Positions 1 through 16,110 are shown, numbered from the stretch's first letter. The stretch is 32,000 nucleotides of DNA from an uncultured Enterobacter sp. (GCA_963521185.1 CAUQTV010000001.1:581081-613080), one strand, 5' to 3'. Numbers and translations: made by a program. The notes: generated by a model not told the origin, from the letters alone.

Positions 1-1463
1 GCTGCGCGGTCACCACCGAGCCGGTCGATCGCACCACCAGCCAGCAGCGCGCGCAGGCAGACTTGCAGGCGATGTTCAGTCATCAGGAGCCGGTCAACGG
101 GCCGATAACCTTACAGGAAGCCACCGCCCGCGCGCTGAAGTACAACCTGGAAGCGCGGCTGAAAATCATGGAAACGGCGCTGGCTGAGCAGCAGGTCTCC
201 CTCGCTCGCTTCGATATGCTGCCAAAAATGGCGGCGGACGCAGGCTATGTCACCCGCGATAACGTCAGCGCCTCCAGCAGCCGCAGCGTGCAGTCCGGTG
301 AACAGTCGCTGGAGCCGTCAACCTCGGAGGATAAAACTCGCCGCGTGGCCGATCTCACCATGGTGTGGAACATTCTCGATTTTGGCGTCAGCTACGTGAC
401 CGCGCACCAGCAGTCCGACAAGCGCTGGATAGCCGAAGAGCGCCGCCGCAAAGTCACCCATACCATTGTGCAGGATGTCCAGTCCGCTTACTGGCGCGCG
501 GTGGCGGCAGAGCGCTTGCTCAGTCGCATCGATACCCTGATTGGCCGCGTCAATATGGCGCGTGAAAACAGCGAAAAAATGACCACCCAGCGGGTCGGCG
601 ATCTGGTCGAAGCTTACAGCTACCAGCGTGCTCTGCTCGACGCCACCCGCCAGCTTGAAGAGCAGCGGCGTGCGCTGTCGCTGGCGAAAACCGAACTGGC
701 AACGCTGATGAACCTGCCGCTTGAAACGCACTATACGCTGGCGCTGCCGGATGAAAATAATCTGCCGGAGCCGACGTTAAACATCCCGTTCGAACAGCTT
801 GAGAACACCGCGCTCATCAATCGCCCGGAGCTGCGCGAGGAGGATTACCAGGCGCGGATCAGCGCCGCCGAAACGCGTAAATCCCTGCTGCGCATGCTGC
901 CCGGGATCGAAGTCAACGTGGGCGGCAACTATGACAGTAACTCATTTTTGGTTAACCAGAGCTGGGTGGATGCCGGGGTGAAAGTGACCTGGAATCTGTT
1001 CAACCTCTTCTCCGGCCCGGCGGCGTATGACGTGGCGAAAGCCGGTGAAACCGTGGGCGAGGCGCGTCGCCAGGCGATGTCGATGGCGGTACTGGCGCAG
1101 CTGTACGTGGCGCGTGCAAATTTCAACGAAGCCACCCGTCAGTACCGTACCGGCAAAGAGTTGCAAAAGCTCGACGCCTCTATTCTTGAACAGCTCAACA
1201 ACCGTTATAAAGCAGGCAGCATCGGCGAGCTACAGCTGATTCAGGGCGAGCTTAACGCGGTAAACACCTCGCTGCGTAACGATCTGGCGTATGCCGAACT
1301 GCGTAACGCCTGGGGACAAATCTTCGTCACCGCCGGGCTGGACCCGCTACCGCCGGGGCAGAAAACGTCCGATATCCCGTCGGTGGAACGTGCGCTGCAA
1401 CAGACGGAAAACCAGTGGCAGAGCGGTAGGGTGGCGATGCAAGCGCCGGGAGCCGTACAGTGA
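1..1463 (+). CDS. TolC-family outer-membrane efflux factor, probable lipoprotein (5' end outside window)
   Basis: The frame of the listed ORF (63..1463) stays open back to base 3. Translation from base 3 reads C-A-V-T-T-E-P-V-D..., which fits the +1 Cys of a lipoprotein whose lipobox lies off-window. The rest has the repeated coiled-coil/beta composition of OMF proteins (LKYNLEARL, LDATRQLEEQRRAL, NRPELREEDYQARISAAE, VTWNLFN). The TGA stop at 1461-1463 overlaps the next start (GTGA). Confidence 0.8.
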   Translation, partial: CAVTTEPVDRTTSQQRAQADLQAMFSHQEPVNGPITLQEATARALKYNLEARLKIMETALAEQQVSLARFDMLPKMAADAGYVTRDNVSASSSRSVQSGEQSLEPSTSEDKTRRVADLTMVWNILDFGVSYVTAHQQSDKRWIAEERRRKVTHTIVQDVQSAYWRAVAAERLLSRIDTLIGRVNMARENSEKMTTQRVGDLVEAYSYQRALLDATRQLEEQRRALSLAKTELATLMNLPLETHYTLALPDENNLPEPTLNIPFEQLENTALINRPELREEDYQARISAAETRKSLLRMLPGIEVNVGGNYDSNSFLVNQSWVDAGVKVTWNLFNLFSGPAAYDVAKAGETVGEARRQAMSMAVLAQLYVARANFNEATRQYRTGKELQKLDASILEQLNNRYKAGSIGELQLIQGELNAVNTSLRNDLAYAELRNAWGQIFVTAGLDPLPPGQKTSDIPSVERALQQTENQWQSGRVAMQAPGAVQ

Positions 1464-2254
1464 GCCGAACGCGTGGCAAAGCATGGCTGGCGCTGCTTGC
1501 GATCGCGCCGCTTTACCTGCATGCCGCACCCGCCGCGCAGACGGAGGACGAGCTTACGCTCGATGCGCCGTCAGCACCGGCGGCCACGGGCGGGCGTGAA
1601 GCGCGTGGCGTGCTGCGCGCGGTCGAACAGGCCACGCTCTCCAGCGAGCTGAATGCGCGTATCGTTGAGTTGCCGTTTCGCGAGGGCGAGTCGTTTCATA
1701 AAGGCGATTTGCTGGTGCGATTTGACTGCGCGGCTTACCAGGCGCAGCTTGCCGCGTCGCAGGGGGCCATGCGTGCCGCGCAGCAGGAGCTAAGCCAGAA
1801 CCGGCAGCTTGCGCAAATGCAGTCCGTCGGGCGCACGGCGGTGGGGTTGTCCGAAGCGCGGCTGGCGCAGGCGGCGGCGGAGAGTCAGGTCTACCAGATC
1901 CAGACCAGTCGCTGCCGGGTGCTGGCACCCTTTGACGGCCAGGTGGTATCGCGCAAAGCGCAGGTGTCCGAGTTTTTAGGCCAGGGCATGCCGCTGCTGG
2001 AGATCGTCAACAACAGCCATCTGGAGATTTACCTGCTGGTGCCGTCCCGCTGGCTGTCTACGCTCAAGCCCAAACAGACCTTCACCTTTACACCGGACGA
2101 GACGGGTGAGGCGTTGCAGGCGGAGATCCTGCGCACCGGGGCGAGAATCGACGAGAGCAGCCAGACGCTCACGCTGATTGGCCGCATCACCGGGGCCGGG
2201 GCCGGACTGCTGTCCGGCATGAGCGGCAGTGCGCACTTCACGGAGCCGCAATGA
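1460..2254 (+). CDS. Small periplasmic adaptor (membrane-fusion / HlyD-RND adaptor type) with signal peptide
   Basis: N-terminal signal-like MSRTRGKAWLALLAIAPLYLHAAPAAQ. Lipoyl-hairpin halves (ATLSSELNARIVELPFREGESFHKGDLLVRFD ... RVLAPFDGQVVSRKAQVSEFLGQGMPLLEIV) flank a coiled-coil segment. GTG start overlaps the upstream stop and the stop overlaps the next ATG (ATGA at 2251-2254). Confidence 0.75.
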   Translation: MSRTRGKAWLALLAIAPLYLHAAPAAQTEDELTLDAPSAPAATGGREARGVLRAVEQATLSSELNARIVELPFREGESFHKGDLLVRFDCAAYQAQLAASQGAMRAAQQELSQNRQLAQMQSVGRTAVGLSEARLAQAAAESQVYQIQTSRCRVLAPFDGQVVSRKAQVSEFLGQGMPLLEIVNNSHLEIYLLVPSRWLSTLKPKQTFTFTPDETGEALQAEILRTGARIDESSQTLTLIGRITGAGAGLLSGMSGSAHFTEPQ

Positions 2255-3570
2255 CGAGCGCAGACACCACGAACGCTGAACACATTTTCGCCCGGCTGTT
2301 GCAGCTTGAGCGGCTGGCGCGGCAGGCGGAAAACAGCGAAACCCTGGCCTGGTCGATGGTGAATGACAGCCAGAGCCTGCTCGGCTTTCGTCATGCGGCG
2401 TTGCTGATTGACGGACGCGTGCGGGCGCTGACCGGCGTGTCGGTGCCCGATCCCCATGCGCCGTTTGTCGCCTTCACTGAGCGCGCTGCCCGGCAGGTCG
2501 CGGCGCAGGGGCAGGCGGACAACGTTACCGTGGTCATCGCCGCCTGGCTGGACGAGCAGACCCGCCAGGCGTGGCAAAGCCTGTCTGCGGCGCACGCGCT
2601 GTGGGTCCCGCTGAAAAACCGCAGAGGTGAACGCGTTGGCGGGCTGTGGTTTGCCCGCGATACACAGTGGCAGGAGCATGAACTGCTGCTCGCCGGGCCG
2701 CTGGCTGAGTGCTGGGCCCATGCCTGGCAGGCGTTAGCGCCGCGCCGATCCTGGCGCGCCCGGCGGCTGAAAACCAAAGTGCTAGCGCTCGTGGTTGTGG
2801 TGCTGGTGGCGTTGCTGATCCCGGTGCGCCAGTCGGTGCTGGCCCCGGCGGAAGTGGTGCCGCTGGGCGGCCAGGTGGTGACCGCGCCCCTCGACGGGGT
2901 GATAGCCCAGATAAACGTGCGCCCGAATCAGGTGGTGAAAAAAGGGTTTCTGCTGGCCCAGTTTGACAGCACGGTGCAAAAAGCCCAGGCCGACGTTGCC
3001 GCGCGTGCGCTTGGCGTGGCGGAGGCCGAACTGCGCTCCGGCGCTCAGCGCGCTTTTCAGGACGCGGAGTCGAAAGCCCGGCTGGATCTGCTCGCCGCCC
3101 AGGTGGAGCAAAAACGCGCCGAACTGGCGTGGGCGCAGGATCTGTTGCAGCGCAGCGACGTGCGCGCCGGGCGTGATGGGATCGCGGTGTTTGCCGACGC
3201 CGATCAGCTTGTCGGCAAACCGGTGAGCACCGGCGAGCGGCTGATGGCGATTGCCGACCCGCAACAGGCGGAACTGAAAATTGAACTGGACGTGGGCGAC
3301 GCGATAGATTTCCCCGCCGATGCCGACGTGACGCTGTTTCTCGACAGCGATCCGCTGGTGCGTCACGATGCGCGACTGACCCGCGTGGCCTATGAATCGG
3401 CGCTGACCGCACAGGGTAGCCTGGCGTGGCGGCTTGATGCCCGCTTTATCGACAAAGCCCCGCGCATTGGCCTGCGCGGTACGGCAAAAGTGTATGGTGA
3501 GCGGGTGCCGCTGGCGCTCTATTTGCTGCGTCGTCCGCTGGCAGCGCTGCGTAAAGCGGTGGGCCTGTAA
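2251..3570 (+). CDS. HlyD-family adaptor with about 165-aa cytoplasmic N-terminal domain (GAF-like pattern), one TM helix
   Basis: TM segment VLALVVVVLVALLIPV sits after a soluble N-domain. It is followed by lipoyl-hairpin halves (VVTAPLDGVIAQINVRPNQVVKKGFLLAQFD ... VRAGRDGIAVFADADQLVGKPVSTGERLMAIAD) around a long coiled coil. ATGA overlap upstream and TAATG overlap downstream. Confidence 0.75.
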   Translation: MTSADTTNAEHIFARLLQLERLARQAENSETLAWSMVNDSQSLLGFRHAALLIDGRVRALTGVSVPDPHAPFVAFTERAARQVAAQGQADNVTVVIAAWLDEQTRQAWQSLSAAHALWVPLKNRRGERVGGLWFARDTQWQEHELLLAGPLAECWAHAWQALAPRRSWRARRLKTKVLALVVVVLVALLIPVRQSVLAPAEVVPLGGQVVTAPLDGVIAQINVRPNQVVKKGFLLAQFDSTVQKAQADVAARALGVAEAELRSGAQRAFQDAESKARLDLLAAQVEQKRAELAWAQDLLQRSDVRAGRDGIAVFADADQLVGKPVSTGERLMAIADPQQAELKIELDVGDAIDFPADADVTLFLDSDPLVRHDARLTRVAYESALTAQGSLAWRLDARFIDKAPRIGLRGTAKVYGERVPLALYLLRRPLAALRKAVGL

Positions 3571-5672
3571 TGAGCGTATTGCCCGCACTGCGCGACGATT
3601 TGCAACTGTGCGCCGCTCCGCCCGCGCTCGATGGATCCCCCCAGTGGACGCTGGCTGACACGCTGGCGGGGCGCTATTTCAAACTCAGCGGCAGCGCCAT
3701 GCGCCTGCTGCGCCACTGGGCGCTGGGAGAGGAGGAGCGGGTGCTGGCCGCGGCGAACCGGGAAGCGGGCGTGCCGCTTGGCAGCGACGAAGTGCAGGGG
3801 CTGTTGCGCTTTTTACGCGCCAACGATCTGATCGTCGGCAGCGATAGCGAGCAGCGCGCCAGCTATGGCCTGAAGGCAGCGGCGCGGCGCAAAGGTCTGC
3901 TAACGCAACTGCTGCATCAGTATCTTTTCTTCCGCATTCCGCTCTGGCGTCCCGATCCCTTTCTTAACCGATGCTGGCCGCTACTGGCGCGGCACGGCGG
4001 CTGGCTGCTGCGGTATGGGTTACCGCTCATTGCGATCCTCGGCGGCTATCTGGTGAGCCGCGACTGGCCGCGCTATCGCGATTCATTCTCCTGGCTTTTC
4101 AGCCTGGAAGGGGCGGCGGCCTTTGGCGTGACGCTGGTATTCGCCAAATTTACCCACGAACTGGGGCATGCGTTTATGGCCAGGCGCGCCGGATGCCGGG
4201 TGCAAAGCATGGGCGTGGCCTTCGTGGTGATGTTCCCGATGTTTTACACCGACGTGAGCGACGCCTGGCGCGTGCACTCAACGCGCGCCCGTCTGCTGAT
4301 TGGCGCGGGTGGCATGCTGGCGGAGTTGATGCTGGCGGTCATTGCGCTGCTGGCCTGGTCGCTGTTGCCGGAAGGGCCGCTGCGCACGGCGGCGTTTTTG
4401 CTCTCCAGCGCCACCTGGCTGACCACGCTGGCGGTCAACCTTAATCCGCTGATGCGCTTTGATGGCTATTTTATTCTCAGCGACGCCTGGCAGGTGGATA
4501 ACCTGCAAGGTCGCGCCTTTGCCCTGTGCCGCTGGCGGCTGCGCGAGGCGCTGTTTGGCTATGGCGATCCGCCGCCGCAGCGCTGGTCACCGGGAATGCA
4601 GCGCCGTTTGCTGATCTGGGGTTACGCCTCATGGCTGTGGCGCTTCTTTCTGTTTCTGGGGATCGCGCTGGCGGTGTATCACTTCTTTTTCAAGCTGCTG
4701 GGCCTGTTTCTGATGGCGGTGGAGGTGAGCTGGTTTATCGCACAGCCGATGGTGCATGAATTTCGCCACTGGTGGAAAGAGCGTCAGCGTGCGCAGCCCA
4801 GGCGGGCGATCTGCATCGCGCTGGGTCTGGCGTTCCTGCTGCTGGTGCTGTTTGTGCCCTGGCGCAACCAGATTGCGATCCCCGCGCAGCTCGACGCCGC
4901 CCGCGTCAGCACCCTTTATGCCCCTGTCGCTGCGCAGCTTGTCGCGCTGCATGTGCGTGACGGCCAGACGGTCAGCGCCGGGCAACGCTTGCTGGTGCTG
5001 GAGGCTCCGGATCTGAATGCCCGTCAGGCCATCGCCCGGCAAAAAATCGCGATTTTGCAATTGCAGCTACGCCGGCTTGCCGCCCAGCGAGACACGGTGG
5101 GCGATACGCTGATTTTGCACCAGCAGCTGGCGGAATCGCTGGCGGAGTATCGCGGTCTGGCGGCGCAGCGGCGCAGGCTGGAGATCCGCGCGCCCTGGGC
5201 CGGGCAGGTGCGCGATGTGGAGCAGGATCTGGCCCCCGGCCGCTGGCTGGCTGCGGACCAGCCGCTGTTGCGCGTGGTCAATGCCGGTGCCGGACGCATT
5301 CGCGGCTATTTGCCGGAAGATGCGCTTAGTGCCATCCAGCCTGCGGCGACAGGGCGCTTTATTGCCGACGATCCCAGTCGGGCGGCGCAGGCGGTGCGCG
5401 TGCAGTCCATCGATCCCACCGCCTCGGCGTTTATTGAGCGAGAAGCGCTGACCTCCGATCACGGCGGCCCGGTGGCGGTGCGCCGGGACGGGCAAAAACG
5501 GGCGCGACCGGTTCAGGCCTGGTACGGCGTGGACATCGTCGTGACCGACAACGCAGCATTTCCGCCGCAGCCCCTGCGGGGTGTGGTGGTCATTAACGGC
5601 AAGGCAGAATCTCTGTTTACCAGCGTCTGGCGTCGCATTGCCGTGCTGGGCATCAGAGAGAGTGGTTTTTAG
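3570..5672 (+). CDS. Peptidase M50 (site-2-protease family) zinc metalloprotease fused to C-terminal HlyD-like adaptor domain
   Basis: HELGH (HExxH) at residues 196-200 (nt 4155-4169). Second M50 motif NLNPLMRFDG with Asp298 (nt 4461-4463). Several hydrophobic helices. C-terminal third has lipoyl-hairpin halves (TLYAPVAAQLVALHVRDGQTVSAGQRLLVLEAPDL ... EIRAPWAGQVRDVEQDLAPGRWLAADQPLLRVV) around a coiled coil. The first roughly 90 aa resemble a PqqD/RRE-like winged helix. Confidence 0.8.
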   Translation: MSVLPALRDDLQLCAAPPALDGSPQWTLADTLAGRYFKLSGSAMRLLRHWALGEEERVLAAANREAGVPLGSDEVQGLLRFLRANDLIVGSDSEQRASYGLKAAARRKGLLTQLLHQYLFFRIPLWRPDPFLNRCWPLLARHGGWLLRYGLPLIAILGGYLVSRDWPRYRDSFSWLFSLEGAAAFGVTLVFAKFTHELGHAFMARRAGCRVQSMGVAFVVMFPMFYTDVSDAWRVHSTRARLLIGAGGMLAELMLAVIALLAWSLLPEGPLRTAAFLLSSATWLTTLAVNLNPLMRFDGYFILSDAWQVDNLQGRAFALCRWRLREALFGYGDPPPQRWSPGMQRRLLIWGYASWLWRFFLFLGIALAVYHFFFKLLGLFLMAVEVSWFIAQPMVHEFRHWWKERQRAQPRRAICIALGLAFLLLVLFVPWRNQIAIPAQLDAARVSTLYAPVAAQLVALHVRDGQTVSAGQRLLVLEAPDLNARQAIARQKIAILQLQLRRLAAQRDTVGDTLILHQQLAESLAEYRGLAAQRRRLEIRAPWAGQVRDVEQDLAPGRWLAADQPLLRVVNAGAGRIRGYLPEDALSAIQPAATGRFIADDPSRAAQAVRVQSIDPTASAFIEREALTSDHGGPVAVRRDGQKRARPVQAWYGVDIVVTDNAAFPPQPLRGVVVINGKAESLFTSVWRRIAVLGIRESGF

Positions 5673-5703
5673 TTCGCCTCAACCCTCATTAAGGAAACAC
5701 CTG

Positions 5704-6375
5704 ATGAACAGACGTGCAAAATCCTCATTATGTCTCGTTGCCTCCGGTCTGCTTGTGTTCTCTTTTTCATCGCACGCGCTGGCCTGCGGTGATGGAGATC
5801 CCTACATCGGATCGGTGTGCTTCAACGTTGCGCCTTATTGTCCCGATCTCTATCTTGAGGCCGCCGGACAGTCGGTGAACATCTCTGATTACCAGGCGCT
5901 TTATGCGCTGATTGGCACCACCTACGGCGGTACGACAACGACCTTTATGCTACCGGATCTGCGCGGGCGTGCGCCGGTCGGGCAAGGAACCGGGCCAGGG
6001 CTTACGGCGGCGGTACAGGGCCAGCCTCGCGGTGCGGAAAGCGTGACGCTAAACGCGTCGAACCTGCCGCCGCACGCCCACGCGGGCACCTTTACCCCCG
6101 GCAGCGGATCGGCGCTGTCATTTAACGCCACCAGCAACGCGGCGACATCAGCAACGCCAACCGCTGCGGCCAACCAGTTGAGCACCTCAGCCGGACCGGC
6201 GGTGAAAATGTATGCCCCGTCGGGCGGCACGCAGGTTCCCCTGGCGGGCGTGGGTGGCGCGGCGATCACCGTACAGCCTGCCGGATCGGGTTCCGCCGCC
6301 GTGCCGGTTGTTTCACCGCAGTCGGTACTCAAAGCCTGTATCGCGGTCAACGGTGTTTTCCCCACCCAGTCATAA
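5704..6375 (+). CDS. Exported phage-tail-collar-domain (MdpB-like) protein, paralog 1
   Basis: ATG at 5704 lies 8 nt after AAGGA (5691-5695); the listed GTG at 5581 would overlap the upstream gene. Signal peptide ends ALA|C. Collar-domain motifs YQALYALIGTTYGG..F.LPDLRGRAPVGQGTGPGL, then RGAESVTL..NLPPHAH and C-terminal PQSVLKACIAVNGVFP. Confidence 0.8.
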   Translation: MNRRAKSSLCLVASGLLVFSFSSHALACGDGDPYIGSVCFNVAPYCPDLYLEAAGQSVNISDYQALYALIGTTYGGTTTTFMLPDLRGRAPVGQGTGPGLTAAVQGQPRGAESVTLNASNLPPHAHAGTFTPGSGSALSFNATSNAATSATPTAAANQLSTSAGPAVKMYAPSGGTQVPLAGVGGAAITVQPAGSGSAAVPVVSPQSVLKACIAVNGVFPTQS

Positions 6376-6402
6376 TGCCACTTATTGATAAGGATCAGAC
6401 TC

Positions 6403-7080
6403 ATGAACTGTTCTTTGACCTCTCCGCTCACCCTGACGGCCTGCGCCCTGGCGCTGCTCTCTGCGTCTCCTAATGTGCTGGCGTGCAGTGTCGATCCCTA
6501 CGTGGGTGCGGTGTGCTTTATGGCAACGAGCTTCTGCCCGCGCGGCTATGTGGAAGCTAACGGCCAGCAGATGGCGGTCCAGCAATCGCAGGCGCTGTAC
6601 TCGCTCATTTCGCGGGTGTATACCCCGTCCTCCACCGGTAATACCGCCTTTAACCTGCCCGATCTGCGCGGCAGAAGCCCGGTGGGTATGGGTGTCGAAG
6701 CCAACGGAACCGTGCTGACGCAGGGGCAAATGCGCGGTGCGGAAACCGCCGTTATGGATCTCTCGAACATGCCGCCCCATAGCCACCAGGCGGCACCCGG
6801 TACGGCGGCGTTTTCCCTGAGCGCGACGAGCAATGCCGGCACCTCCACTGGCCCGGCGACGGCCACCAACCAGTTAGCTGCCGCAAGCGGCCCGGCGACA
6901 AAAATCTACGCCCCAGCGGGAGGCACGCAAATTCCGCTGGCGGGGGTGAACGGCGCTCTGACCGGGGCGACGGTGGCGGTGAGCAATACGGGCCAGGCGG
7001 TGCCTTTCGCCACGCTGACACCGCAGACGCCACTGCGCGCCTGCGTGGCGGTGATGGGCATTTATCCGCGAAGACCTTAG
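6403..7080 (+). CDS. Exported phage-tail-collar-domain (MdpB-like) protein, paralog 2
   Basis: ATG at 6403 lies 8 nt after AAGGA (6390-6394). Signal peptide ends VLA|C. Motifs SQALYSLISRVY...FNLPDLRGRSPVGMG, RGAETAVMDLSNMPPHSH and C-terminal PQTPLRACVAVMGIYP. Confidence 0.8.
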   Translation: MNCSLTSPLTLTACALALLSASPNVLACSVDPYVGAVCFMATSFCPRGYVEANGQQMAVQQSQALYSLISRVYTPSSTGNTAFNLPDLRGRSPVGMGVEANGTVLTQGQMRGAETAVMDLSNMPPHSHQAAPGTAAFSLSATSNAGTSTGPATATNQLAAASGPATKIYAPAGGTQIPLAGVNGALTGATVAVSNTGQAVPFATLTPQTPLRACVAVMGIYPRRP

Positions 7081-7132
7081 CGGGTGCGCGAACGAACCTC
7101 TTTTTTCACCACAGTGATATAAGGAACAGGCA

Positions 7133-7807
7133 ATGAAAACCTCTCTTTCTCTGGTGGTTGCGACAACAGCGTTACTGGCTTTCTCGTCCGGCGCACAGGC
7201 GTGCGAAGGCGAGGGCGAGTTTATCGGCGCGGTGTGCTTTACGGCGGCGACCTTCTGCCCGTCGGGTTATCTTGACGCGAACGGGCAAACCGTACTCGTC
7301 AATCAGTTTCAGGGGCTTTACAGCCTGGTGGGCAATCACTATGGCGGTACGCCGGGTGTTAACTTTACGCTGCCGAATCTGCAAGGCTTCAGCCCGGCGG
7401 GGCAGGGAACGGGGCCGGGGCTAACTAACGCTGCGCAATACAGTACGCGCGGCGCAGAGAGCCAAACGCTGACTCAGGCGCAGCTTCCTGCCCATACGCA
7501 TACGGCGACGCTCAATCCCACCGCGACCGGCCTTAGCGTAAATGCCAGCACCAGCCCTGGGGCGAATGCCGCGCCGTCCGCGGCCAATAACCAACTGGCG
7601 ACGGCGACGCCAAACGCAAAAATCTATGCGCCAGCCAGCACCGGTAGCGATACGGTTCCGCTTGCCGGGCTTGCGGGCGGTATCGCCGGGGCGGCTGTGG
7701 CGCTGGCGACCACCGGCGGCGGCATGCCAATAACGACGGTTTCTCCACAGCTGGTGCTGAAAGCCTGTATCGCTTACGACGGCGATTATCCGGTTAACCC
7801 GAATTAA
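7133..7807 (+). CDS. Exported phage-tail-collar-domain (MdpB-like) protein, paralog 3 (divergent DLRGR motif)
   Basis: ATG preceded by AAGGAACAGG. Signal peptide ends AQA|C. Motifs FQGLYSLVGNHYGG...FTLPNLQGFSPAGQGTGPGL, RGAESQTLTQAQLPAHTH and C-terminal PQLVLKACIAYDGDYP. Confidence 0.8.
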   Translation: MKTSLSLVVATTALLAFSSGAQACEGEGEFIGAVCFTAATFCPSGYLDANGQTVLVNQFQGLYSLVGNHYGGTPGVNFTLPNLQGFSPAGQGTGPGLTNAAQYSTRGAESQTLTQAQLPAHTHTATLNPTATGLSVNASTSPGANAAPSAANNQLATATPNAKIYAPASTGSDTVPLAGLAGGIAGAAVALATTGGGMPITTVSPQLVLKACIAYDGDYPVNPN

Positions 7808-7820
7808 CCCTCAGCAAATC

Positions 7821-7848
7821 GTCACGCCAGGCGCTTCTCTGGCGTGAC
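7821..7848 (+). terminator. 10-bp stem hairpin downstream of the tail-collar genes (no U-tract)
   Basis: GTCACGCCAG (7821-7830) pairs with CTGGCGTGAC (7839-7848) around an 8-nt loop, 14 nt after the stop at 7807. There is no T-run, so terminator function is uncertain. Confidence 0.35.
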
Positions 7849-8038
7849 AGGATATGTCACGCGAAGGGATCACTAAAAAGAATACGCCAGAAATGGCTTG
7901 TTATTCAGCGGCTTGTGATAAGCGAATTATTATGCCCCCTGGCCTGAAATTCATCCGTTACGTTGACATATCCTGACACCGACACCCCGCATAATATCCC
8001 CACAAAACAACAAACTGACATCAAAAGGACTTCGGGAC

Positions 8039-8761
8039 GTGAAGAAGCCTCACACTCGCCATGACCGACTGGCGGTGCGCTTATCGGTGATGATAAGTCG
8101 CTTGCTGGCCGGGGAAACGCTCAATCTGGGTGCGCTTGCGGAGGAGTTCGGTGTTTCTGAGCGCACTTTGCAGCGCGATCTGCATGAGCGGCTTTTGCAT
8201 CTCGATCTCATTCATCACAACGGTCACTACAGCATGCCGGGCAACCGCATTCGCCAGCACTCCCCAGATATTCTGACCTTTACGCGTAATACCGGGATTG
8301 CGGCGGTATTCCCCGGTCAGCACCGCAGACTGGTGAATACGATAGCCGCCAGTAAAGACATGCAGCCATGCGTGATTTCGCTGCCGGAACTGCGTTTTTC
8401 CGCCACCGTGGCGGACTGTTTTCACCGACTGCTGCTGGCCATTACACAGAGTCGCCGCATCATTTTATTTACCGACGGCGAACAGTACGTCAGCACGGAA
8501 CCTTACCAGCTTATTTTCCAGAAAGAGGCCTGGTATCTGGTGGCGTGGTGCCAGGACGCCGTGCAGGTTTTTGCGCTCGACGATATCGACGCGGTGATTG
8601 TGATGGAGCAGGTCTTCAGCCGACGCCGGGATATTAGCGCGCTGGCGGCGCAGGCGCGTTTTATTGCCGCACTTCCGTATTTCCGCGTTATTCATGAGGT
8701 GCAGGCGACGCTGAATCAACACGGTGATGGCTTCGATAAACGAAACCAGAAATATTTGTAA
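8039..8761 (+). CDS. HTH + WYL-domain transcriptional regulator
   Basis: N-terminal DeoR/YafY-type HTH (LNLGALAEEFGVSERTLQRDLHE). Central WYL signature (PYQLIFQKEAWYLVAWCQDAVQVFALDDI). GTG start 9 nt after AAGGA. Confidence 0.8.
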   Translation: MKKPHTRHDRLAVRLSVMISRLLAGETLNLGALAEEFGVSERTLQRDLHERLLHLDLIHHNGHYSMPGNRIRQHSPDILTFTRNTGIAAVFPGQHRRLVNTIAASKDMQPCVISLPELRFSATVADCFHRLLLAITQSRRIILFTDGEQYVSTEPYQLIFQKEAWYLVAWCQDAVQVFALDDIDAVIVMEQVFSRRRDISALAAQARFIAALPYFRVIHEVQATLNQHGDGFDKRNQKYL

Positions 8762-8798
8762 ACCTCGCCACGCGCTTATTTAAGATGAGAATGTCACG

Positions 8799-9089
8799 AT
8801 GCACACTTCCGAATCCCGCCCTCTGACGCCCGTAGAGAGCTGGCAGAAATTATTAACCTGGCTACTGGCCAAACATTATGGACTGGCGCTCAGCGAAACG
8901 CCTTTTGACGATCCGGCGGTTATTGGCGGCTATATTGATGCTGACGTGTCGCTGGTGGATGCCCTCAATGAATGGGTTAAGTGCGTAGCGATCACGCGCA
9001 TTGATACGCCCCCGTTCCACTGGCGGGAACCCACGCCCTATATCGAACTTATCGATATTTTGCAGGCGCAGCAGTGGGTGAAATTGTAA
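8799..9089 (+). CDS. CbtA/YeeV/YkfI-family (type IV TA) toxin-like protein, short form
   Basis: SRPLTPVESWQKLLTWLLAKHYGLALSETPFDDPAVIGGYIDADVSLVDALNEWV..ITRID lines up by eye with E. coli CbtA [54 protein letters not shown]..LVRTD. It is shorter at both ends than the 124-aa CbtA. Confidence 0.7.
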   Translation: MHTSESRPLTPVESWQKLLTWLLAKHYGLALSETPFDDPAVIGGYIDADVSLVDALNEWVKCVAITRIDTPPFHWREPTPYIELIDILQAQQWVKL

Positions 9090-9600: not shown

Positions 9601-9829
9601 AGGGACAGCCTGTACCTGATTTGCGAATGCGTGAGAAGCATACTGTGACAGGAGATGGCTGACAATTGTAATGAGGATAAATGCGGCGAGCTACGCAGAA
9701 GTGGAAAATAGCGCCCTGAAACTAAAAATCCATGCAGGGTGGGGGAAAAGAAAGTCTGCGATCCTTTTTGAAGGTTATGGCGGATATGATATTATTAAAT
9801 CATTCCAATAACCCATGCGGGAGAGCGTC

Positions 9830-10504
9830 ATGCGTGTCCAGAAAGTGCAATCTGGGGTTTCCACCCTGACTGGAACCCCGGAAGAAGTGCGTAACAGGCT
9901 CGGTAAATCACATGCCGATCACGTGCTGGTCGTCAGTTTCGAGCACCTGAGTCCTTCCGGGTCAAAAATATTTATTGAAAATCTGTCCAGCGTGGCGTCG
10001 TCCATGTTTGGGCTGCTTCAGGAACAGCAGAGTCGCAACTCGCTACAGCGTCTGGCGGATGCACTGGTGCCGCGTACACCAGCGCCACCCCGGCTTATCA
10101 GAGAAACAGCCATGCTGGTTAAGGCGCGCAAAGCCGTTCTGGACAGTGGTGACTGGCTGAGCGCTGCCGAACTGGCACAGTTGGCGCAGCTGAGCACCAC
10201 CAATCCGAGCGCTCAGCCGAACAAATGGAAGAAGAACGGACACATCTTCGCGATTCACCACAACGGTGTTGATTACTTCCCCGGCTATGGCCTGGACAGG
10301 GATGCGAATTTCCGGCCTCTGAAAACGATGGCTCAGGTGATCGAGGTGTTTGACGGCCATAAAGACGGATGGGGGATGGCCTTCTGGTTTCTCTCGGCCA
10401 ACAGCTTCCTTGGTGGGAAACGACCGCAGGACTTACTTGCTACAGACCCTGAGCGGGTGATCGCGGCAGCCATGGATGAAGTTCAGGGTGTCGAGCATGG
10501 CTAA
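9830..10504 (+). CDS. Xre/MbcA/ParS-type antitoxin (C-terminal DUF2384 toxin-binding domain), long form
   Basis: C-terminus WFLSANSFLGGKRPQDLLATDPERVIAAAMDEV is the DUF2384 signature. It sits immediately upstream of, and overlaps, a RES-domain gene. ATG 9830 is preferred over 9815 because GGGAGAG (9819-9825) lies 4 nt upstream. Confidence 0.75.
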   Translation: MRVQKVQSGVSTLTGTPEEVRNRLGKSHADHVLVVSFEHLSPSGSKIFIENLSSVASSMFGLLQEQQSRNSLQRLADALVPRTPAPPRLIRETAMLVKARKAVLDSGDWLSAAELAQLAQLSTTNPSAQPNKWKKNGHIFAIHHNGVDYFPGYGLDRDANFRPLKTMAQVIEVFDGHKDGWGMAFWFLSANSFLGGKRPQDLLATDPERVIAAAMDEVQGVEHG

Positions 10505-11204
10505 GCGTCCTGTCAGGGCAAAGGGTGTCCCTGAGCAACCGGAGCAGGAGGAGGCGGGAACTACGCCACTGCCTCAACCCGGTCCCCTTAAAACCACAAC
10601 ACTGTCAGTGAGTGCAGGAACAGTGTTGCACCGCGTCCATCAGGAGCAATGTGCGGCCGACCAGTTCAACCCGGGTGTCAAAGGCAACGCGCGTTTTAGC
10701 CCCATCCGGAATGCGGAGGGCGGCACCATCCCGACCCTGTACGCAGGCCTGACCAGGGAGTGCGCCATGATGGAGACCGTCTTTCACGATGTGCCTTTTG
10801 CGCCAGGGCTTAAAACGTACGATAAAAGCAAACTGGACGGGCAGTTGCACTCGACGCTGATGGTCACCGACGATCTGGAGTTACTGGATCTGACCAGTAT
10901 CTCGTTGCGCAAACTGGGTATCACCCGCAAGCAGTTGATCGATACGGAGAAGGATCAGTATCCCAATACCCGCAAATGGGCCGAGGCGTTGCATCAGCAG
11001 TGCCCGACGGCACAGGGGTTATCCTGGGTCTCCAGGCAGGATGACACCACGCGGGCCATGGTACTGTTTGGCACTCGGGTTTCTGTGCAGGCACTTCGTC
11101 CCACAGGCGAGTCGCTTAGTCTGGTCAATGACACCGCCACCTACGATGCTGTGCTCGATTTGGCTGAGAGGCTGGATGTGCTGATTGTCCCGGGTAAAGA
11201 CTGA
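10497..11204 (+). CDS. RES-domain toxin (MbcT/ParT-like NAD+-targeting family)
   Basis: R-E-S landmarks are GNARFSP, RECAMMETVFHD and GLSWVSRQDD. ATG 10497 overlaps the antitoxin stop (ATGGCTAA, 8-nt overlap); the listed start at 10476 is the alternative. Confidence 0.85.
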   Translation: MAKRPVRAKGVPEQPEQEEAGTTPLPQPGPLKTTTLSVSAGTVLHRVHQEQCAADQFNPGVKGNARFSPIRNAEGGTIPTLYAGLTRECAMMETVFHDVPFAPGLKTYDKSKLDGQLHSTLMVTDDLELLDLTSISLRKLGITRKQLIDTEKDQYPNTRKWAEALHQQCPTAQGLSWVSRQDDTTRAMVLFGTRVSVQALRPTGESLSLVNDTATYDAVLDLAERLDVLIVPGKD

Positions 11205-11476
11205 GCCGATTGTCACGTTGCAGCGGCGATGCGCTTAGCCAGCCTTAAGGGCGTATGCGTCCATCAGTTGAACTCACAGCGAACAACCGACGTTACGTGT
11301 ATAAGTGAAAAAGTGCTGATTTTTCATTCAAGCCCTGTTAACTTGAATGACAATGAAAACACACTCATTTCTATTCCATTCAATTATTATCACCTGTCTG
11401 ACTCAGGTGGGATAACGTTCGCCATTTTCCCGCCGGTAAGGCGGGCCTTACCGGAAATTATCTAGTGAGGTAAACA

Positions 11477-11983
11477 ATGGACACCGCTACAGTAACAACG
11501 TCAGAAAAACCTACTTTGCACCTGTTATGTGGAAAAATTGCATCTGGGAAATCCACACTGTCAGCAAAGCTGGGATCATCACCTGGCACCGTAATTGTCA
11601 GTGAGGATCTTTGGCTGGCTGCTCTCTTTGCTAAAGAAATGCATTCCATATCTGATTATGTTCAGTATTCCTCAAGGCTGAGAAATGCTATGAAACCTCA
11701 TCTGGTGTCACTACTCAAAGCTGGTTTATCAATAGTTCTTGATTTCCCGGCAAACACACAAACAAATCGTGAATGGATGATGAGCATCATTAAGGAGTCA
11801 GGTGCTTGTAACCAACTGCACTATCTCAAAGTATCTGATGAAGTATGTAAATCCCGCTTACGCGCTCGTAACGCAGAAGGAGAACATGAATTTTCCGCTT
11901 CAGATCAACAATTTGAAATCATAACGCGTTATTTCTCAGAACCAAAAGCTGATGAAGGGTTTAATATTATAGAATACAGCTGA
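11477..11983 (+). CDS. P-loop NTPase / small kinase-like ATP-binding protein (AAA_33-like)
   Basis: Walker A CGKIASGKST near the N-terminus. About 170 aa, typical of small nucleotide or antibiotic kinase-like proteins. RBS GTGAGG upstream. Lies in the AT-rich context. Confidence 0.7.
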   Translation: MDTATVTTSEKPTLHLLCGKIASGKSTLSAKLGSSPGTVIVSEDLWLAALFAKEMHSISDYVQYSSRLRNAMKPHLVSLLKAGLSIVLDFPANTQTNREWMMSIIKESGACNQLHYLKVSDEVCKSRLRARNAEGEHEFSASDQQFEIITRYFSEPKADEGFNIIEYS

Positions 11984-12090
11984 ATCCATCTTTATGAACA
12001 TAAGCCGTCTGCTGGCGGCTTTACAGCCTGGGCGCGGAGCGGATAGGTACGCTGGTCTTTAGCGGCTGTAAACAACCTACAGGGTGACTC

Positions 12091-12300
12091 TCAGAGTGAA
12101 TTTCTGCGCTTCCACTCATCCACCACATCACCTAAGTTTTTTGGTACATCATTTCTTATCCAGGCCATAAACGCACGATCAAATTTAAAGTTCGGACCAC
12201 ATTCATCAATCATGAAACGACGAACATTTTGTGTATTTTTGTAGTTGTTATCCACGAAAGTGGTGCGATCTAAAGAAGAACCATGCCAGTCTGTTTTCAT
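12091..12300 (-). CDS. Small protein, DUF6434-like
   Basis: 69-aa ORF with YKNTQNVRRFM...FKFDRAFMAWI, a pattern I associate with DUF6434 proteins. Assignment is from memory only. Confidence 0.45.
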   Translation of the reverse strand: MKTDWHGSSLDRTTFVDNNYKNTQNVRRFMIDECGPNFKFDRAFMAWIRNDVPKNLGDVVDEWKRRNSL

Positions 12301-12671
12301 TTATTTATTCCTAAAAACAAGTGTAGTAGCCTAAAGCTATCATACTAACTTTTGATATGTCCGCACCTGGCACACAGAGAACATCCAGGCCTCTCCGGTC
12401 ACGGCATGAAGGGCAGAAAATCCAGAACAAGGCGGGCATTTTCTCAACCGCAACTGCGCAGAGACATCACTGATGCTCGCAAACCTTTATGGTGCCAGTG
12501 GGTGCCTGTCGAAGATTGGCCGGCAAACCCGCCCGGTTAAGTCATTCCTGCTGGCTGCGCGGAATCTTGCATGCCAATATGATGTGCTACATGCTTATAC
12601 CTTACAATTTATGCGACAGTTTTGCTAAACGCCCTAAAATTGAAGCTCAGCCAGATGTACGGAGTCTACTC

Positions 12672-13157
12672 ATGTGGGAAAAATTTATAATCAAAAACTT
12701 CAACAAAGTTAAAGATGTTAATTTCAAGAGAGCACCGCTCTATGAGTCAGAAGGTGGATCTCTTACCTCTGGCACTTTGGCGATAAAACTCGGAGCATCT
12801 GTTGACACTCTTCCCCCAGGCAAAAGATGTTCACCTTTTCATTTTCATCATGTTCAGGAAGAAATGTTTATCGTTTTAAAAGGCAATGGAACATTGAGAA
12901 TCGCAGATGAGATGGTTGAGATAGAGGAAGGGGACGTTATATGTATTCCCCCTGGAGAGGCATACCCACATCAAATCATAAATACTTCATCCTTGCCACT
13001 TACTTATATGTCTGTGAGTACCATGGAGACGCCCGAGGTCTGTGAGTATCCAGACTCAAATAAATATTTAGTTAAATCAACTAACCAGAAAGAACAGGGG
13101 TTTAGAGTCGCAGATTTCAGGAGCAGAGGGGTGGATTATTGGGAGGGTGAGCCTTGA
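12672..13157 (+). CDS. Cupin-domain protein
   Basis: Cupin motifs are FHFHHVQEEMFIVLKGNG and GDVICIPPGEAYPHQIIN. ATG 12672 is preceded by GGAG (12661-12664). The listed upstream extension from 12489 has no cupin-like sequence. Confidence 0.75.
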   Translation: MWEKFIIKNFNKVKDVNFKRAPLYESEGGSLTSGTLAIKLGASVDTLPPGKRCSPFHFHHVQEEMFIVLKGNGTLRIADEMVEIEEGDVICIPPGEAYPHQIINTSSLPLTYMSVSTMETPEVCEYPDSNKYLVKSTNQKEQGFRVADFRSRGVDYWEGEP

Positions 13158-13476
13158 TTCAAAAAATACCGTTTCCATTTCTATCACTAGTAACATCCGC
13201 TCTTGGCTCGGAGCAGAAATGCGCGCCCAGCAATGTCCGCTGTGAGCGAGGTATAGTCATTCGTACCCTGAGAATTACACTTTGAAGTGATTCAGGGTAT
13301 GCGCTTACTGGTTACGAATATTGAGCGAGAATCATGTGATGATCGCCGCTTTTCTTTCGAACCAGTAGGTGCTCCACGTTCGCTAACGAATACTCAGGGC
13401 ATGCAGATAAACTGCTGGCTATATTTCTTTCGAAGAGCGTGGAATGCATACCAATCCCCGATAAAAGGAGTTGGTG

Positions 13477-14715
13477 ATGACTGCGACTAATTAATTTGCT
13501 GCACATGTTGGTCTGGACTGGGCAGATAAAAAACACGATGTATGTGTTCAGTTTAAAAACGGTGAACGCGTATTCCATGTGATTGAACATACAGCAGAAG
13601 CGCTTGATGCCTGGCTTACCGAGTTACACCAGAAGGTAAAAGGCAGGATCGCTATAGCTCTCGAGCTGAAGAAGGGACCCGTGGTGTATGCTCTTCAGAA
13701 ATATCCGTTTATCACCGTTTTCCCCGTCCACGCTTTGTCCCTGGCTCGTTACCGGCAAGCCTTCTCGCCCAGCGGAGCTAAAGATGACCCGCAGGATGCC
13801 GAGCTGGCATTAGAGTTAATGCTGCGTTATCCCCAAAAGATAAAAGCCATTGAACTCGACAATGCGGATATCCGGTTACTCCAGCAACTGGTTGAGCAGC
13901 GTCGTCAACTGGTTGAAGATAAACGACGTTTCGTGAACCGGCTAATCAACACGCTTAAACAGTATTATCCTCAGCCACTGGAGTGGTTCTCACATCGGGG
14001 TAGCTTGCTGTTGTGTGAACTGATTATACGGTGGCCCAGTCTGCAACAACTCAAACGCGCCAGGCGCGATACAATCCGCGACTTTCTCAATGCTAAAGGT
14101 GGCCGCGCAATGGCTCTTACCGAGCAGCGTGTGGTGAGTATTGATAACGCGATCCTATTGACGACAGACCCGAGTGTTATAGAGGCTAATGCTTTGATGG
14201 CAACAGCACTGGCGACACAAATTAAAGTCGTGAGTGAAATAATCAAAACCTATGACGAACGAATCGAAACGCTGTTTGACACATTGCCGGATGCGGTGCT
14301 GTTCAAATCACTTCCGGGCATGGGGCCGTGTATGGGCCCACGAATGCTTGCTGCACTTGGTGATAACCGTGACCGGTTTAACAACGCTGAAGAAATTCAA
14401 AACTACGCAGGTATTGCACCGGTGACAGAACGAAGTGGCCAGAAATCCTGGGTTCACTGGAGATGGCAGTGTGCGAAGTTCGTCAGGCAGACATTTGTTG
14501 AATGGGCTGCCAGGACGGTTAACTCATCATACTGGGCCAAACTTTATTACCAGGGCCAGCGAGACAAAGGGAAATCGCATCAATCAGCCATCCGGGCTCT
14601 GGCGTTTAAATGGATAAGGATCATTTACCGCTGCTGGAAGACCAGAACCCGCTACGACGAAGCAAAATATTTGCTGGCACTCGAAGCGCGACGCTCGCCC
14701 TTACTTAGGCCATAA
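13477..14715 (+). mobile_element. IS110-family insertion sequence, transposase gene region (minimum extent, element ends not determined); frame interrupted by TAA at 13492-13494
   Basis: AAAAGGAG (13463-13470) followed by ATG 13477 reads M-T-A-T-N-stop. The same frame then continues F-A-A-H-V-G-L-D-W-A-D-K-K-H-D-V-C-V... into the listed ORF. GLDWADKKHD matches the N-terminal GIDxxK motif carrying the first DEDD aspartate. Confidence 0.7.
13579..14715 (+). CDS. IS110-family transposase, longest intact ORF (lacks N-terminal catalytic Asp segment)
   Basis: Typical IS110/IS1111-type sequence: LKSLPGMGPCMGPRMLAALGD...AGIAPVTERSGQKSWVHWRW.C.KFVRQTF.EWA...YY..QR.KGKSH..AIRALAFKWIRIIYRCW. The GTG start is simply the first start codon after the in-frame stop. 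Confidence 0.8.
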   Translation: MIEHTAEALDAWLTELHQKVKGRIAIALELKKGPVVYALQKYPFITVFPVHALSLARYRQAFSPSGAKDDPQDAELALELMLRYPQKIKAIELDNADIRLLQQLVEQRRQLVEDKRRFVNRLINTLKQYYPQPLEWFSHRGSLLLCELIIRWPSLQQLKRARRDTIRDFLNAKGGRAMALTEQRVVSIDNAILLTTDPSVIEANALMATALATQIKVVSEIIKTYDERIETLFDTLPDAVLFKSLPGMGPCMGPRMLAALGDNRDRFNNAEEIQNYAGIAPVTERSGQKSWVHWRWQCAKFVRQTFVEWAARTVNSSYWAKLYYQGQRDKGKSHQSAIRALAFKWIRIIYRCWKTRTRYDEAKYLLALEARRSPLLRP

Positions 14716-14978
14716 AAGCTTGTCGAATGTCTCAGGGCGTGAAGCGGACAATGCTAACAGCATTCTGTGTGAATCAATAGGGAGCATGTCATGTTAATCA
14801 ACAACGATATATTTTCTCCATATGCACGTTCAAGTTCATTGCGTCAGTAAACTATATAATTGCTAACGATGATAAGTATAATTATATAAGCCTTTGCCCT
14901 TAGCTTTTGAATAATTTTGTTGAAGTTTCACGAAAATAATGATAAACAAAAAAAGTAGCAATAATTAAGGATTTAATT

Positions 14979-15911: not shown

Positions 15912-16110
15912 CGTTACGTTTTGATTGAAATAACCCCATTTTGCAAGGTCCGCTCCTGGCACGCACCGGACCTCTCGAATGAGTTCTATCCTCGGTATTC
16001 ACTAAGTGCAATAAATTCTAATCGGATTCTACAACCCATTTGTCCAGCATATCAGCCCAACCCTGTACTCATTTTAACCGCGTTGTTATGAGATGAGTTG
16101 AGGCACTATA

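Follow-up and report, generated by a model that had tools for sequence, protein, structure and literature searches.

The left end (positions 1-7807) of a 32,000-nucleotide stretch of DNA from an uncultured Enterobacter sp. (GCA_963521185.1, CAUQTV010000001.1:581081-613080), referred to here as the window, carries most of an operon that on balance we believe to encode an envelope-spanning apparatus for export or surface display, dedicated to giant proteins with an N-terminal LEPR-type leader. The operon consists of eight genes -- for a giant protein, a TolC-like outer-membrane factor (OMF), two periplasmic adaptor proteins (PAP1 and PAP2), a fusion of a PqqD-like RiPP recognition element (RRE), an M50 intramembrane metalloprotease and a third adaptor (RRE-M50-PAP, here called the fusion), and three proteins with the Collar domain of phage tails -- and the window carries genes 2-8. 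The giant LEPR/DUF4347 protein, rather than the Collar proteins, appears to be the regular partner of the system, being found at 72 of 80 tabulated loci.

To our knowledge, tripartite OMF-adaptor systems have always been thought to need an ATP-binding cassette (ABC), resistance-nodulation-division (RND) or major facilitator superfamily (MFS) pump. The present system is of the tripartite OMF-adaptor type, with an inner-membrane partner of a new class and a signal that is also new: a large family (267 or more species loci, and no fewer than 150 clusters of full-length proteins at 50% identity) keeps the OMF and the adaptors and has the pump replaced by a putatively leader-binding intramembrane protease. 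It is real, widespread and mechanistically unexplained, and would represent either a new way to move very large proteins across two membranes or an unsuspected partnership, for example with SecA. An earlier note, made from the window sequence alone, knew of no characterised system of this composition; no description was found in the literature searched either, and papers outside those searched could exist. In two efflux reviews the string M50 was a residue number or part of a DOI, and where DUF4347 was named it was in passing. If the proposal is right, this would be the first candidate sorting or processing machinery for the LEPR-type N-terminal signal catalogued by NCBI, and a cellular role can be proposed for the widespread stand-alone COG4675 'phage tail collar' proteins. 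In Pseudomonas, Azospirillum, Burkholderia and Enterobacterales that live with plants or in soil, the giants probably serve as major adhesins, and the plasmid-borne copies in Kosakonia and E. coli make the system mobile and experimentally tractable.

Gene content, linkage and the missing pump

The window was placed by exact match on a 1.7-Mb Enterobacter scaffold, and a stretch of that scaffold reaching upstream of it is designated L001. Gene calls on the window found seven plus-strand genes, all in the same direction, in positions 1-7807, and the start/stop overlaps described in the earlier note (GTGA at 1460-1463, ATGA at 2251-2254 and TAATG at 3568-3572) were confirmed exactly on the sequence. 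In L001, the stop of the giant open reading frame (ORF) forms a further ATGA overlap with the OMF start, and the five genes from the giant to the fusion mutually overlap by 1-4 nt. Pfam searches (OEP, HlyD_3, Peptidase_M50 and Collar) agree with the assignment of an OMF, two adaptors, an M50-adaptor fusion and three Collar proteins (Table 1), as with the note's count of three adaptor modules; the fusion is, as stated there, the only polytopic inner-membrane protein encoded in the operon.

The OMF gene runs past the left edge of the window: it starts 91 nt upstream, its first 31 codons lie outside, and the reading frame is open from base 3 onward, where the Cys codon of its lipobox (LAVSGC) occupies bases 3-5. 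The complete ORF encodes 517 aa (L001 8451-10004). PAP1 has a hydrophobic N-terminus, taken as a signal peptide without lipobox, and an alpha-hairpin. PAP2 combines a GAF-like cytoplasmic domain (aa 1-170, nt 2251-2760) with a single transmembrane (TM) helix (aa 174-192, nt 2770-2826; Kyte-Doolittle hydropathy, KD, 2.44) and a periplasmic adaptor domain (nt 2827-3567). The GAF assignment comes from homologues only, because the window copy of PAP2 has no Pfam GAF match: 7 of 16 homologous PAP2 N-termini match Pfam GAF, the best at 2e-7, and a profile of the PAP2 N-terminus run against PDB found nothing meaningful. The TIGR01843 (type_I_hlyD) cut-off was reached by none of the three adaptor modules. 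More than one distinct adaptor working with a single OMF has a precedent for mixed rings in TriABC-OpmH of Pseudomonas aeruginosa, where two distinct adaptors and the RND pump TriC export small molecules; unlike TriABC-OpmH, the window system has no pump, and one of its adaptors is fused to a protease.

That no energising transporter is visible, as the note had it, holds for the window, for the upstream extension and for related loci: an ABC, RND or MFS pump was found neither in the window nor in 8.5 kb further upstream, nor was such a gene found inside any of the clusters inspected. Extending the contig upstream, the course proposed there for finding an ABC/C39 exporter and a small precursor, revealed neither of these, and the giant gene instead. 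No C39 peptidase-ABC exporter or small double-glycine precursor is present, and the operon leaves no room for a small precursor; upstream of the giant gene, the 8.5-kb extension holds epimerase, DUF2058 and pseudouridine synthase genes. An upstream ABC exporter was rejected after this extension and a scan of 86 loci for ORFs with Walker-A and LSGGQ motifs. Such ORFs occur in 21 of the 86, 20 of them upstream of PAP1 (by at least about 1.4 kb, mostly by more than 4 kb) and one downstream of the OMF, and they are not conserved.

Relatives of the fusion are abundant: over 5068 homologues, each under a generic name, reach E <= 1e-10; a library of 50%-identity clusters gave 11438 matches at E <= 1e-3, of which 2669 reach E <= 1e-30, and the best 150 clusters are almost all full-length (about 700 aa, E <= 1e-134). 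The species loci counted above came from a scan of one genome per species, the best 80 being tabulated by tblastn with the window proteins. Next to the fusion, PAP2 is present in all 80, PAP1 in 79, the giant in 72 and a Collar gene in 67 (two Collars in 10 loci); the loci without a giant gene are mostly cut by contig ends. The OMF was detected in 18 of the 80, always directly after the giant gene, which in most loci exceeds the 10-kb flank.

The gene order varies. In Enterobacterales it is giant, OMF, PAP1, PAP2, fusion and Collar(s), while in Pseudomonas it is PAP1, PAP2, fusion, then optionally GNAT, Collar (often on the opposite strand), PMT_2 glycosyltransferase and sulfotransferase genes, and finally giant and OMF. 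An Azospirillum plasmid (44% identity) carries two opposite-strand Collars, GNAT, a DUF4347 protein, an Ig-like protein, TolC, two PAPs and the fusion; a Burkholderia plasmid (38%) has Collar, DUF4347 giant, TolC, two PAPs and fusion; and E. coli/Citrobacter IncF plasmids (35%) have a 4459-aa Ig-like giant, TolC, two PAPs and fusion, with no Collar. The E. coli version is found in 24 of 5426 complete genomes (21 copies on plasmids, 4 chromosomal), and IncF replicon typing was seen for one of its plasmids, CX15 (NZ_CP081743; L082/L084). Loci without Collars include seven untruncated Pseudomonas and Izhakiella loci among the 80 as well as the E. coli plasmids, Phyllobacterium and Methylosinus. 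Since the distant versions keep the other parts and sometimes lack Collars, the core is a set of five genes (giant-OMF-PAP-PAP-M50PAP), to which the Collars are a frequent accessory.

The giant protein, the fusion and a proposed export route

The giant gene of L001 is broken by an assembly gap, a run of N that falls within its repeats, and the gene caller split the ORF and called spurious antisense ORFs there. A DUF4347 domain (1e-49) lies in the N-terminal part of the protein; besides it there are cadherin-like VNDAP repeats, six or more Big_12 Ig-like repeats and a C-terminal region rich in Pro. The motif LE[PAS]RxxFD follows a basic stretch of 25-45 aa in 72 of 73 N-termini of giants, with the consensus LEPR[MIL][ML]FD[GA][AS]VAAT; the conserved leader motif is LEPRMLFDGAVAAT. 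It is retained in the giants of E. coli (LESRQLFDGAA), Azospirillum (LEPRFMFDAA) and Burkholderia (LEPRVVYDAS), and the giant of a sister system in Methylosinus carries a canonical LEPRVLL. The resemblance is to NCBIfam NF012209 (LEPR-XLL, LEPR-8K), where a short N-terminal LEPR motif likewise opens very large repetitive proteins, though the window-type motif LEPRMLFDGA scores just below the cut-off of that family (14.5 vs 17 bits). Neither NCBIfam nor the literature searched yielded a curated family or paper naming machinery for the LEPR-XLL signal.

A Sec signal on the giant is not supported: the 12-residue hydrophobicity maximum of its N-terminus is 1.2-1.8, in a stretch that includes Asp, against 2.1-2.4 in the signal peptides of the operon, so that by hydrophobicity there is no Sec-type core, and no Tat signal is recognisable. 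The giants contain only one or two Cys in more than 2000 aa. No RTX block was found in them, with no HemolysinCabind match and only 0-3 GGxGxD motifs. A shared C-terminal helix motif, FGAPxLxxQLQQLxDxEQxQ, is present in L001 (about 8300-8454) and in 18 other OMF-bearing loci where the end of the giant was recovered, and is degenerate yet recognisable in the Azospirillum, Burkholderia and E. coli plasmid giants; it could be a secretion signal, or an anchor or retention helix.

Two residues of the DUF4347 domain (about 2840-3300 in L001, and in 71 other loci), His150 (SHG) and Cys195 (LLYGCDV), do not vary in any of 72 sequences, those of E. coli, Azospirillum and Burkholderia among them. Because the giants total only one or two Cys, Cys195 is probably the sole or nearly sole Cys of the protein. 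DUF4347 may be an autoprocessing domain, since the His...Cys order after beta-strands resembles that of clan-CD (caspase/CHAT-like) cysteine proteases.

A leader-recognition domain is predicted at the cytoplasmic N-terminus of the fusion. An AlphaFold2 (AF2) model of this domain alone (pLDDT 80.5, pTM 0.69) has the topology beta-beta-beta-alpha-alpha-alpha, and the top 10 Foldseek matches in the PDB are all leader-binding RREs (TbiB1, TfuB1 6jx3, CteB and TglI; probability 0.85-1.0), several of them solved with the leader peptide bound. The best match is TbiB1 5v1u (probability 1.0, E 1.9e-3), with a TM-score normalised by target length of 0.65, this score reaching up to 0.67 across the matches. 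An N-terminal sequence profile searched against PDB sequences also put TbiB1 on top, at a non-significant E of 0.55. Distant homologues of the fusion are named PqqD family by the NCBI annotation pipeline PGAP, and that of Methylosinus matches TIGR03859 (PqqD) at 1e-5. A full-length model of the fusion (pLDDT 67.6, pTM 0.33) gave adaptor matches only in the fold search.

In the protease part, the residues H196, E197, H200, N292, P293, D298 and G299 are the same in all of 14 homologues with 62-100% identity. Its nearest families are leader proteases of peptides made on the ribosome and modified after translation (RiPPs), namely NF041824 (daptide_HExxH, MpaP-type, 3e-38) and NF058609 (YydH/LiaK, 3e-9). 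The RiPP M50 proteases (YydH/EpeP of epipeptides, MpaP of daptides, TglG) thus have the best family-level similarity to the M50 part, together with a PqqD-type RRE, though the fusion scores far below the equivalog cut-offs (131.9 vs 300 bits for NF041824 and 36.9 vs 225 for NF058609), is joined to a periplasmic adaptor, and has a giant protein as its partner in a Gram-negative envelope with an OMF. Neither the window operon nor the Pseudomonas clusters contain a small precursor or a modifying enzyme (radical-SAM, for example). The M50 protease EpeP is thought both to cleave and to export its peptide (review PMC10885120). The adaptor domain of the fusion has an alpha-hairpin at aa 480-535 in the AF2 secondary structure, and its Foldseek matches are MacA, MexA, EmrA and AcrA (E 1e-11 to 1e-9).

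In the route proposed here, the giant protein would be synthesised in the cytoplasm, where the RRE of the fusion would bind its LEPR leader, and the fused M50 protease would cut this leader at the membrane. The adaptor domain of the fusion, PAP2 with its GAF domain and TM helix, and the soluble PAP1 would form a mixed adaptor ring docking the TolC-like lipoprotein OMF, a conduit through which the giant could be threaded to the cell surface; the GAF domain of PAP2 may gate export. The Collars would be trimeric, metal-binding partners of receptor-binding type that meet the giant outside the cytoplasm, accessory rather than core, perhaps as a lectin-like tip, an anchor to lipopolysaccharide or a DUF4347 ligand.

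No energy source is encoded in the window subtype. A sister subtype with its own SecA-like ATPase was found in Alphaproteobacteria, its clearest example being the cluster on Methylosinus pMSC49a (fusion 28% identical): an 8848-aa giant, DUF3467, PAP, RRE-M50-PAP, SecA-like protein, second PAP and TolC. The SecA-like protein there, of 638 aa, is annotated 'prepilin peptidase' and matches SecA at 7e-179. Two Rhodobacterales plasmids share the order giant ORF, DUF3467 (annotated only in L090), PAP, RRE-M50 and SecA-like. This ATPase suggests that these clusters translocate protein with a SecA-type motor, and because the sister subtype encodes it, an ATP-driven SecA-type push is proposed for the window system also, possibly by the housekeeping SecA. 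Taken to its full extent, the proposal is of an unrecognised Gram-negative secretion pathway: the RRE-M50-adaptor protein would replace the ABC transporter of a type I secretion system (T1SS) and remove the LEPR leader, a multi-adaptor/TolC conduit and a SecA-type motor (dedicated in the sister subtype, housekeeping or other here) would carry cargo of 2000 to more than 8000 aa, and Collar trimers would be extracellular accessories. In this complete form we offer it tentatively, as a possibility somewhat short of an even chance.

Several observations weigh against this route. No inner-membrane channel or energiser was found among the operon genes, and we know of no M50 protease that serves as a protein translocase. 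Binding of the LEPR leader by the RRE is proposed from fold and linkage; the E-values of the fold match are modest (2e-3), and Pfam at E <= 10 gave no match for the fusion N-terminus, PqqD included. At the position of the giant motif, NF012209 scores 14.3-14.6 bits in three of five giants, below its cut-off of 17, and no match was reported for the giant of L001, which belongs to the window operon itself, or for that of the E. coli plasmid. The C-terminal helix of the giant could be a T1SS-like signal that acts together with an ABC transporter from another part of the genome. Pseudomonas accounts for most of the 80 tabulated loci, with some from Enterobacterales and Tolumonas, so that they are not independent. 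As to the Collars, their homologues in Methylomonas and Roseovarius lie in unrelated contexts with no giant protein, and the role given to them above is guesswork and the weakest part of the model.

It is unlikely that the system is an ordinary T1SS with its ABC transporter encoded elsewhere, from which the giant would exit C-terminus first through an ABC, membrane fusion protein (MFP) and OMF, with the M50 fusion serving as a maturation or quality-control protease. An OMF and HlyD-type adaptors are indeed T1SS parts, the giants resemble T1SS substrates in their conserved C-terminal helical motif and very few Cys, and a Collar-linked DUF4347 giant in Bacterioplanes carries RTX repeats. T1SS operons, however, usually hold the ABC and MFP genes together with the OMF elsewhere, and here the arrangement is reversed (OMF and adaptors together, no ABC) in every cluster seen, in three classes and through several rearrangements. 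There are three adaptors instead of one and no RTX block, the sister subtype adds a SecA-like ATPase and not an ABC ATPase, and a conserved N-terminal leader with a leader-recognition domain would be left unexplained.

In the proposed route the system would operate as a leader-dependent exporter that spans the envelope in one step, and its closest analogues are the adhesin T1SSs (LapA/LapBCE, SiiE/SiiCDF and BapA) and the peptidase-containing ABC transporters (PCATs); both of these are defined by an ABC transporter, and here there is none. With the adhesin T1SSs it shares a giant, Cys-poor protein of Ig-like or cadherin-like repeats adjoining a TolC-like OMF and HlyD-type adaptors, which implies a one-step, envelope-spanning architecture; surface display is probable here. 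It differs from them in having no ABC in any cluster, three adaptors, an RRE-M50 protease as the inner-membrane partner, and an N-terminal LEPR leader instead of or besides a C-terminal RTX signal; and the gene cluster, considered alone, contains no LapG or LapD genes for LapA-type retention. With PCATs, the C39 exporters of peptides with double-glycine leaders, it would share the physical coupling of leader recognition and cleavage to export through adaptor and OMF. Its protease, unlike theirs, is an M50 enzyme with an RRE and not a C39 cysteine protease, ABC domains are missing, the presumed cargo exceeds 2000 aa where theirs is a small peptide, and the leader is LEPRxxFD and not GG.

The same parts might instead form no exporter at all: the adaptors and OMF could be an anchor or signalling device in which regulated intramembrane proteolysis by the M50 protease releases or retains the adhesin when the GAF domain senses a signal, the giant crossing the inner membrane by some other way. 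Regulated intramembrane proteolysis is the best-known role of M50 proteases and speaks for such a device, as do the cytoplasmic GAF-like sensor domain of PAP2 and the want of an encoded energiser. We consider it very unlikely, however. The fusion has no PDZ domain by Pfam and NCBIfam, and no sigma or anti-sigma genes were found nearby, in both respects unlike RseP-type site-2 proteases; the M50 part groups with RiPP leader proteases and not with RseP; the giant has no recognisable Sec or Tat signal for another route; and the SecA-like ATPase of the sister subtype favours translocation.

The Collar proteins

The three Collar proteins score 53.5-65.9 bits against the Pfam gathering score of 24 for PF07484. 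Their starts were revised to ATG 5704 for the first (Col1; not 5701 or 5581) and 6403 for the second (Col2; not 6385). Near-identical AAGGA-N8-ATG initiation regions had been reported for all three; this holds at 5704 and 6403, and at 7133 the spacing is N7. The export signals noted earlier for these proteins were likewise found, as assigned from hydrophobicity and cleavage-site pattern: the N-termini are hydrophobic (12-residue Kyte-Doolittle maximum 2.06-2.39) and end in an AXA-type site (ALA, VLA or AQA) followed by Cys, the signal peptide of Col1 being aa 1-27. The mature proteins have four conserved Cys, which suggests two disulfides. An HxH motif is present at aa 124-126 of Col1, and P122, H124 and H126 are invariant in the Collar alignment, where a C-terminal GxYPxR is also conserved.

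Col1 matches T4 gp12 at 1.7e-3. The likeness to gp12 and to COG4675/MdpB lies in the Collar domain PF07484 and the HxH motif, which in gp12 binds metal on the trimer axis; the window Collars differ in being stand-alone cellular proteins of about 200 aa in an operon without other phage structural genes. The earlier statement to this last effect is borne out in the window, where no sheath, tube, baseplate or other phage structural gene lies beside them. Phage or tailocin origin was rejected, since real phage proteins are matched over the Collar domain only (44% coverage) and 2.9 million viral contigs contain no relatives of the fusion.

The neighbourhood tally of fusion homologues that the earlier note called for shows Collar genes co-occurring with the fusion far more often than chance. 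Searching from the Collar side, Brenneria was found to have the full system, Marinomonas the order OMF, PAP, Collar, DUF4347 giant, and Bacterioplanes a DUF4347 giant directly downstream of a Collar gene, without an adaptor or OMF in the neighbourhood. The tightest link of the Collars is to the DUF4347 giant protein.

The note had gone on to propose that the OMF, the three adaptors and the M50 protease form a machine dedicated to the Collars themselves, which it would process and export or display at the surface and which could serve as adhesins, effectors resembling bacteriocins or receptor decoys; on that reading the giant would be a bystander or a second cargo. The Collar genes of the window directly follow the M50 fusion, and the linkage of Collar genes to the system recurs in four different gene orders, in Alpha-, Beta- and Gammaproteobacteria. 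The Collars of the window and their closest relatives carry Sec-type signal peptides, those of the Pseudomonas, Azospirillum and Burkholderia systems are leaderless, beginning directly at the Collar domain, and the leaderless ones would need another export route. The envelope machine stands, but as its principal cargo the Collars are improbable. The machine and a giant occur with no Collar in seven or more untruncated loci and in the versions from E. coli, Phyllobacterium and Methylosinus; the Sec-type signal peptides of the window Collars mean that the system is not needed for their crossing of the inner membrane; the leaderless Collars offer the RRE no leader or LEPR motif; and pairs of Collar and DUF4347 giant without nearby adaptor or OMF tie the Collar to the giant and not to the machine.

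A hypothetical protein of about 106 aa adjoins the leaderless Collar genes of Azospirillum (L085 1757-2077) and Burkholderia (L086 1062-1385); a Pseudomonas ORF (L005 12620-13024) matches it by position alone, and the window has no counterpart. Just upstream of the Collar-giant pair, the plasmid of Burkholderia anthina carries a gene (L086 1-896) whose annotation reads 'phage tail length tape measure family protein'. Between fusion and giant in Pseudomonas, GNAT, sulfotransferase and PMT_2 glycosyltransferase genes recur, GNAT also in Azospirillum, a hint that the giant or the Collar proteins may be modified after translation. In Roseovarius, a sulfotransferase gene adjoins an unrelated triad of Collar genes.

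Operon boundaries and genomic setting

Table 1. Features of the operon and of related loci (positions count from the first letter of the window unless a locus is named; KD, Kyte-Doolittle hydropathy)
Feature	Position	Strand	Evidence or remark
Giant gene, at least 2000 aa	L001 2456-8454, outside the window	+	DUF4347, cadherin-like VNDAP and Big_12 repeats
OMF, TolC-like lipoprotein	1-1463	+	Pfam OEP 1.7e-38, in two stretches
PAP1, soluble periplasmic adaptor, 264 aa	1460-2254	+	TIGR01730 RND_mfp 2e-32 (above cut-off); HlyD_3 6.8e-16
PAP2	2251-3570	+	HlyD_3 1.3e-10
RRE-M50-adaptor fusion, 700 aa	3570-5672	+	Peptidase_M50 6.4e-7 and HlyD_3 (Pfam)
Predicted PqqD-like RRE of the fusion, aa 1-92, cytoplasmic N-terminus	3570-3845	+	AF2 fold, Foldseek
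M50 motifs of the fusion	4155-4466	+	HExxH aa 196-200 (nt 4155-4169); NxxPxxxxDG aa 292-299 (nt 4443-4466)
Last TM helix and periplasmic adaptor domain of the fusion	4806-5669	+	TM aa 413-431, KD 2.67; adaptor aa 432-700
Collar protein 1 (Col1), 223 aa	5704-6375	+	Pfam Collar 3.1e-18
Collar protein 2 (Col2), 225 aa	6403-7080	+	Pfam Collar 1.1e-15; 49% identical to Col1
Collar protein 3, 224 aa	7133-7807	+	Pfam Collar 2.3e-14; 49% identical to Col1
Stem-loop	7821-7848	+	perfect 10-bp GC-rich stem, 14 nt past the last stop, no T-run
SecA-like ATPase genes (truncated SecA-like)	L087 10967-12883 (Methylosinus pMSC49a); L091 11045-13003; L090 10895-12901
Modification-type genes (GNAT, sulfotransferase, PMT_2 group)	L039 12101-12592, 14779-15615; L005 13810-15402; L085 3274-3843; L096 8917-9819

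The stem-loop beyond the last Collar gene (RNA fold -25.8 kcal/mol, z -3.1) probably marks the operon's 3' end or else is a hairpin that stabilises the mRNA; it was not called in the terminator scan, and no convincing intrinsic terminator or sigma-70 promoter was found within 5600-8200. At 60-66%, the G+C content of the operon exceeds that of the core genes located in the window's right half (pth, prs, ispE, lolB, hemA, prfA, kdsA and chaA), which is about 55%. An identical eight-gene layout, with a fusion 87% identical, is present on an 80-kb Kosakonia cowanii plasmid. Since the same eight genes sit there beside a tyrosine recombinase (integrase), the cluster is horizontally mobile.

The island around the operon is a mosaic, in which WYL regulator, CbtA toxin, RES toxin, IS110 transposase and GIY-YIG genes follow the operon. 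The WYL/HTH regulator (8039-8761) and the CbtA-family toxin gene after it (8799-9089) are an unusual pairing, with no obvious CbeA-type antitoxin between them (8039-9089). The RES-domain toxin gene (10476-11204) overlaps a preceding 229-aa ORF without Pfam match (region 9815-11204), presumably its antitoxin, and is followed by an AAA_33/Zeta-like kinase gene at 11477-11983. A tract of low G+C (39-47%) at 11000-16000, with a cupin gene, an IS110-family transposase (13579-14715) and a GIY-YIG-like gene (14979-15911), separates the 64% G+C operon from the core genes, which run from pth onward, from about 17388.

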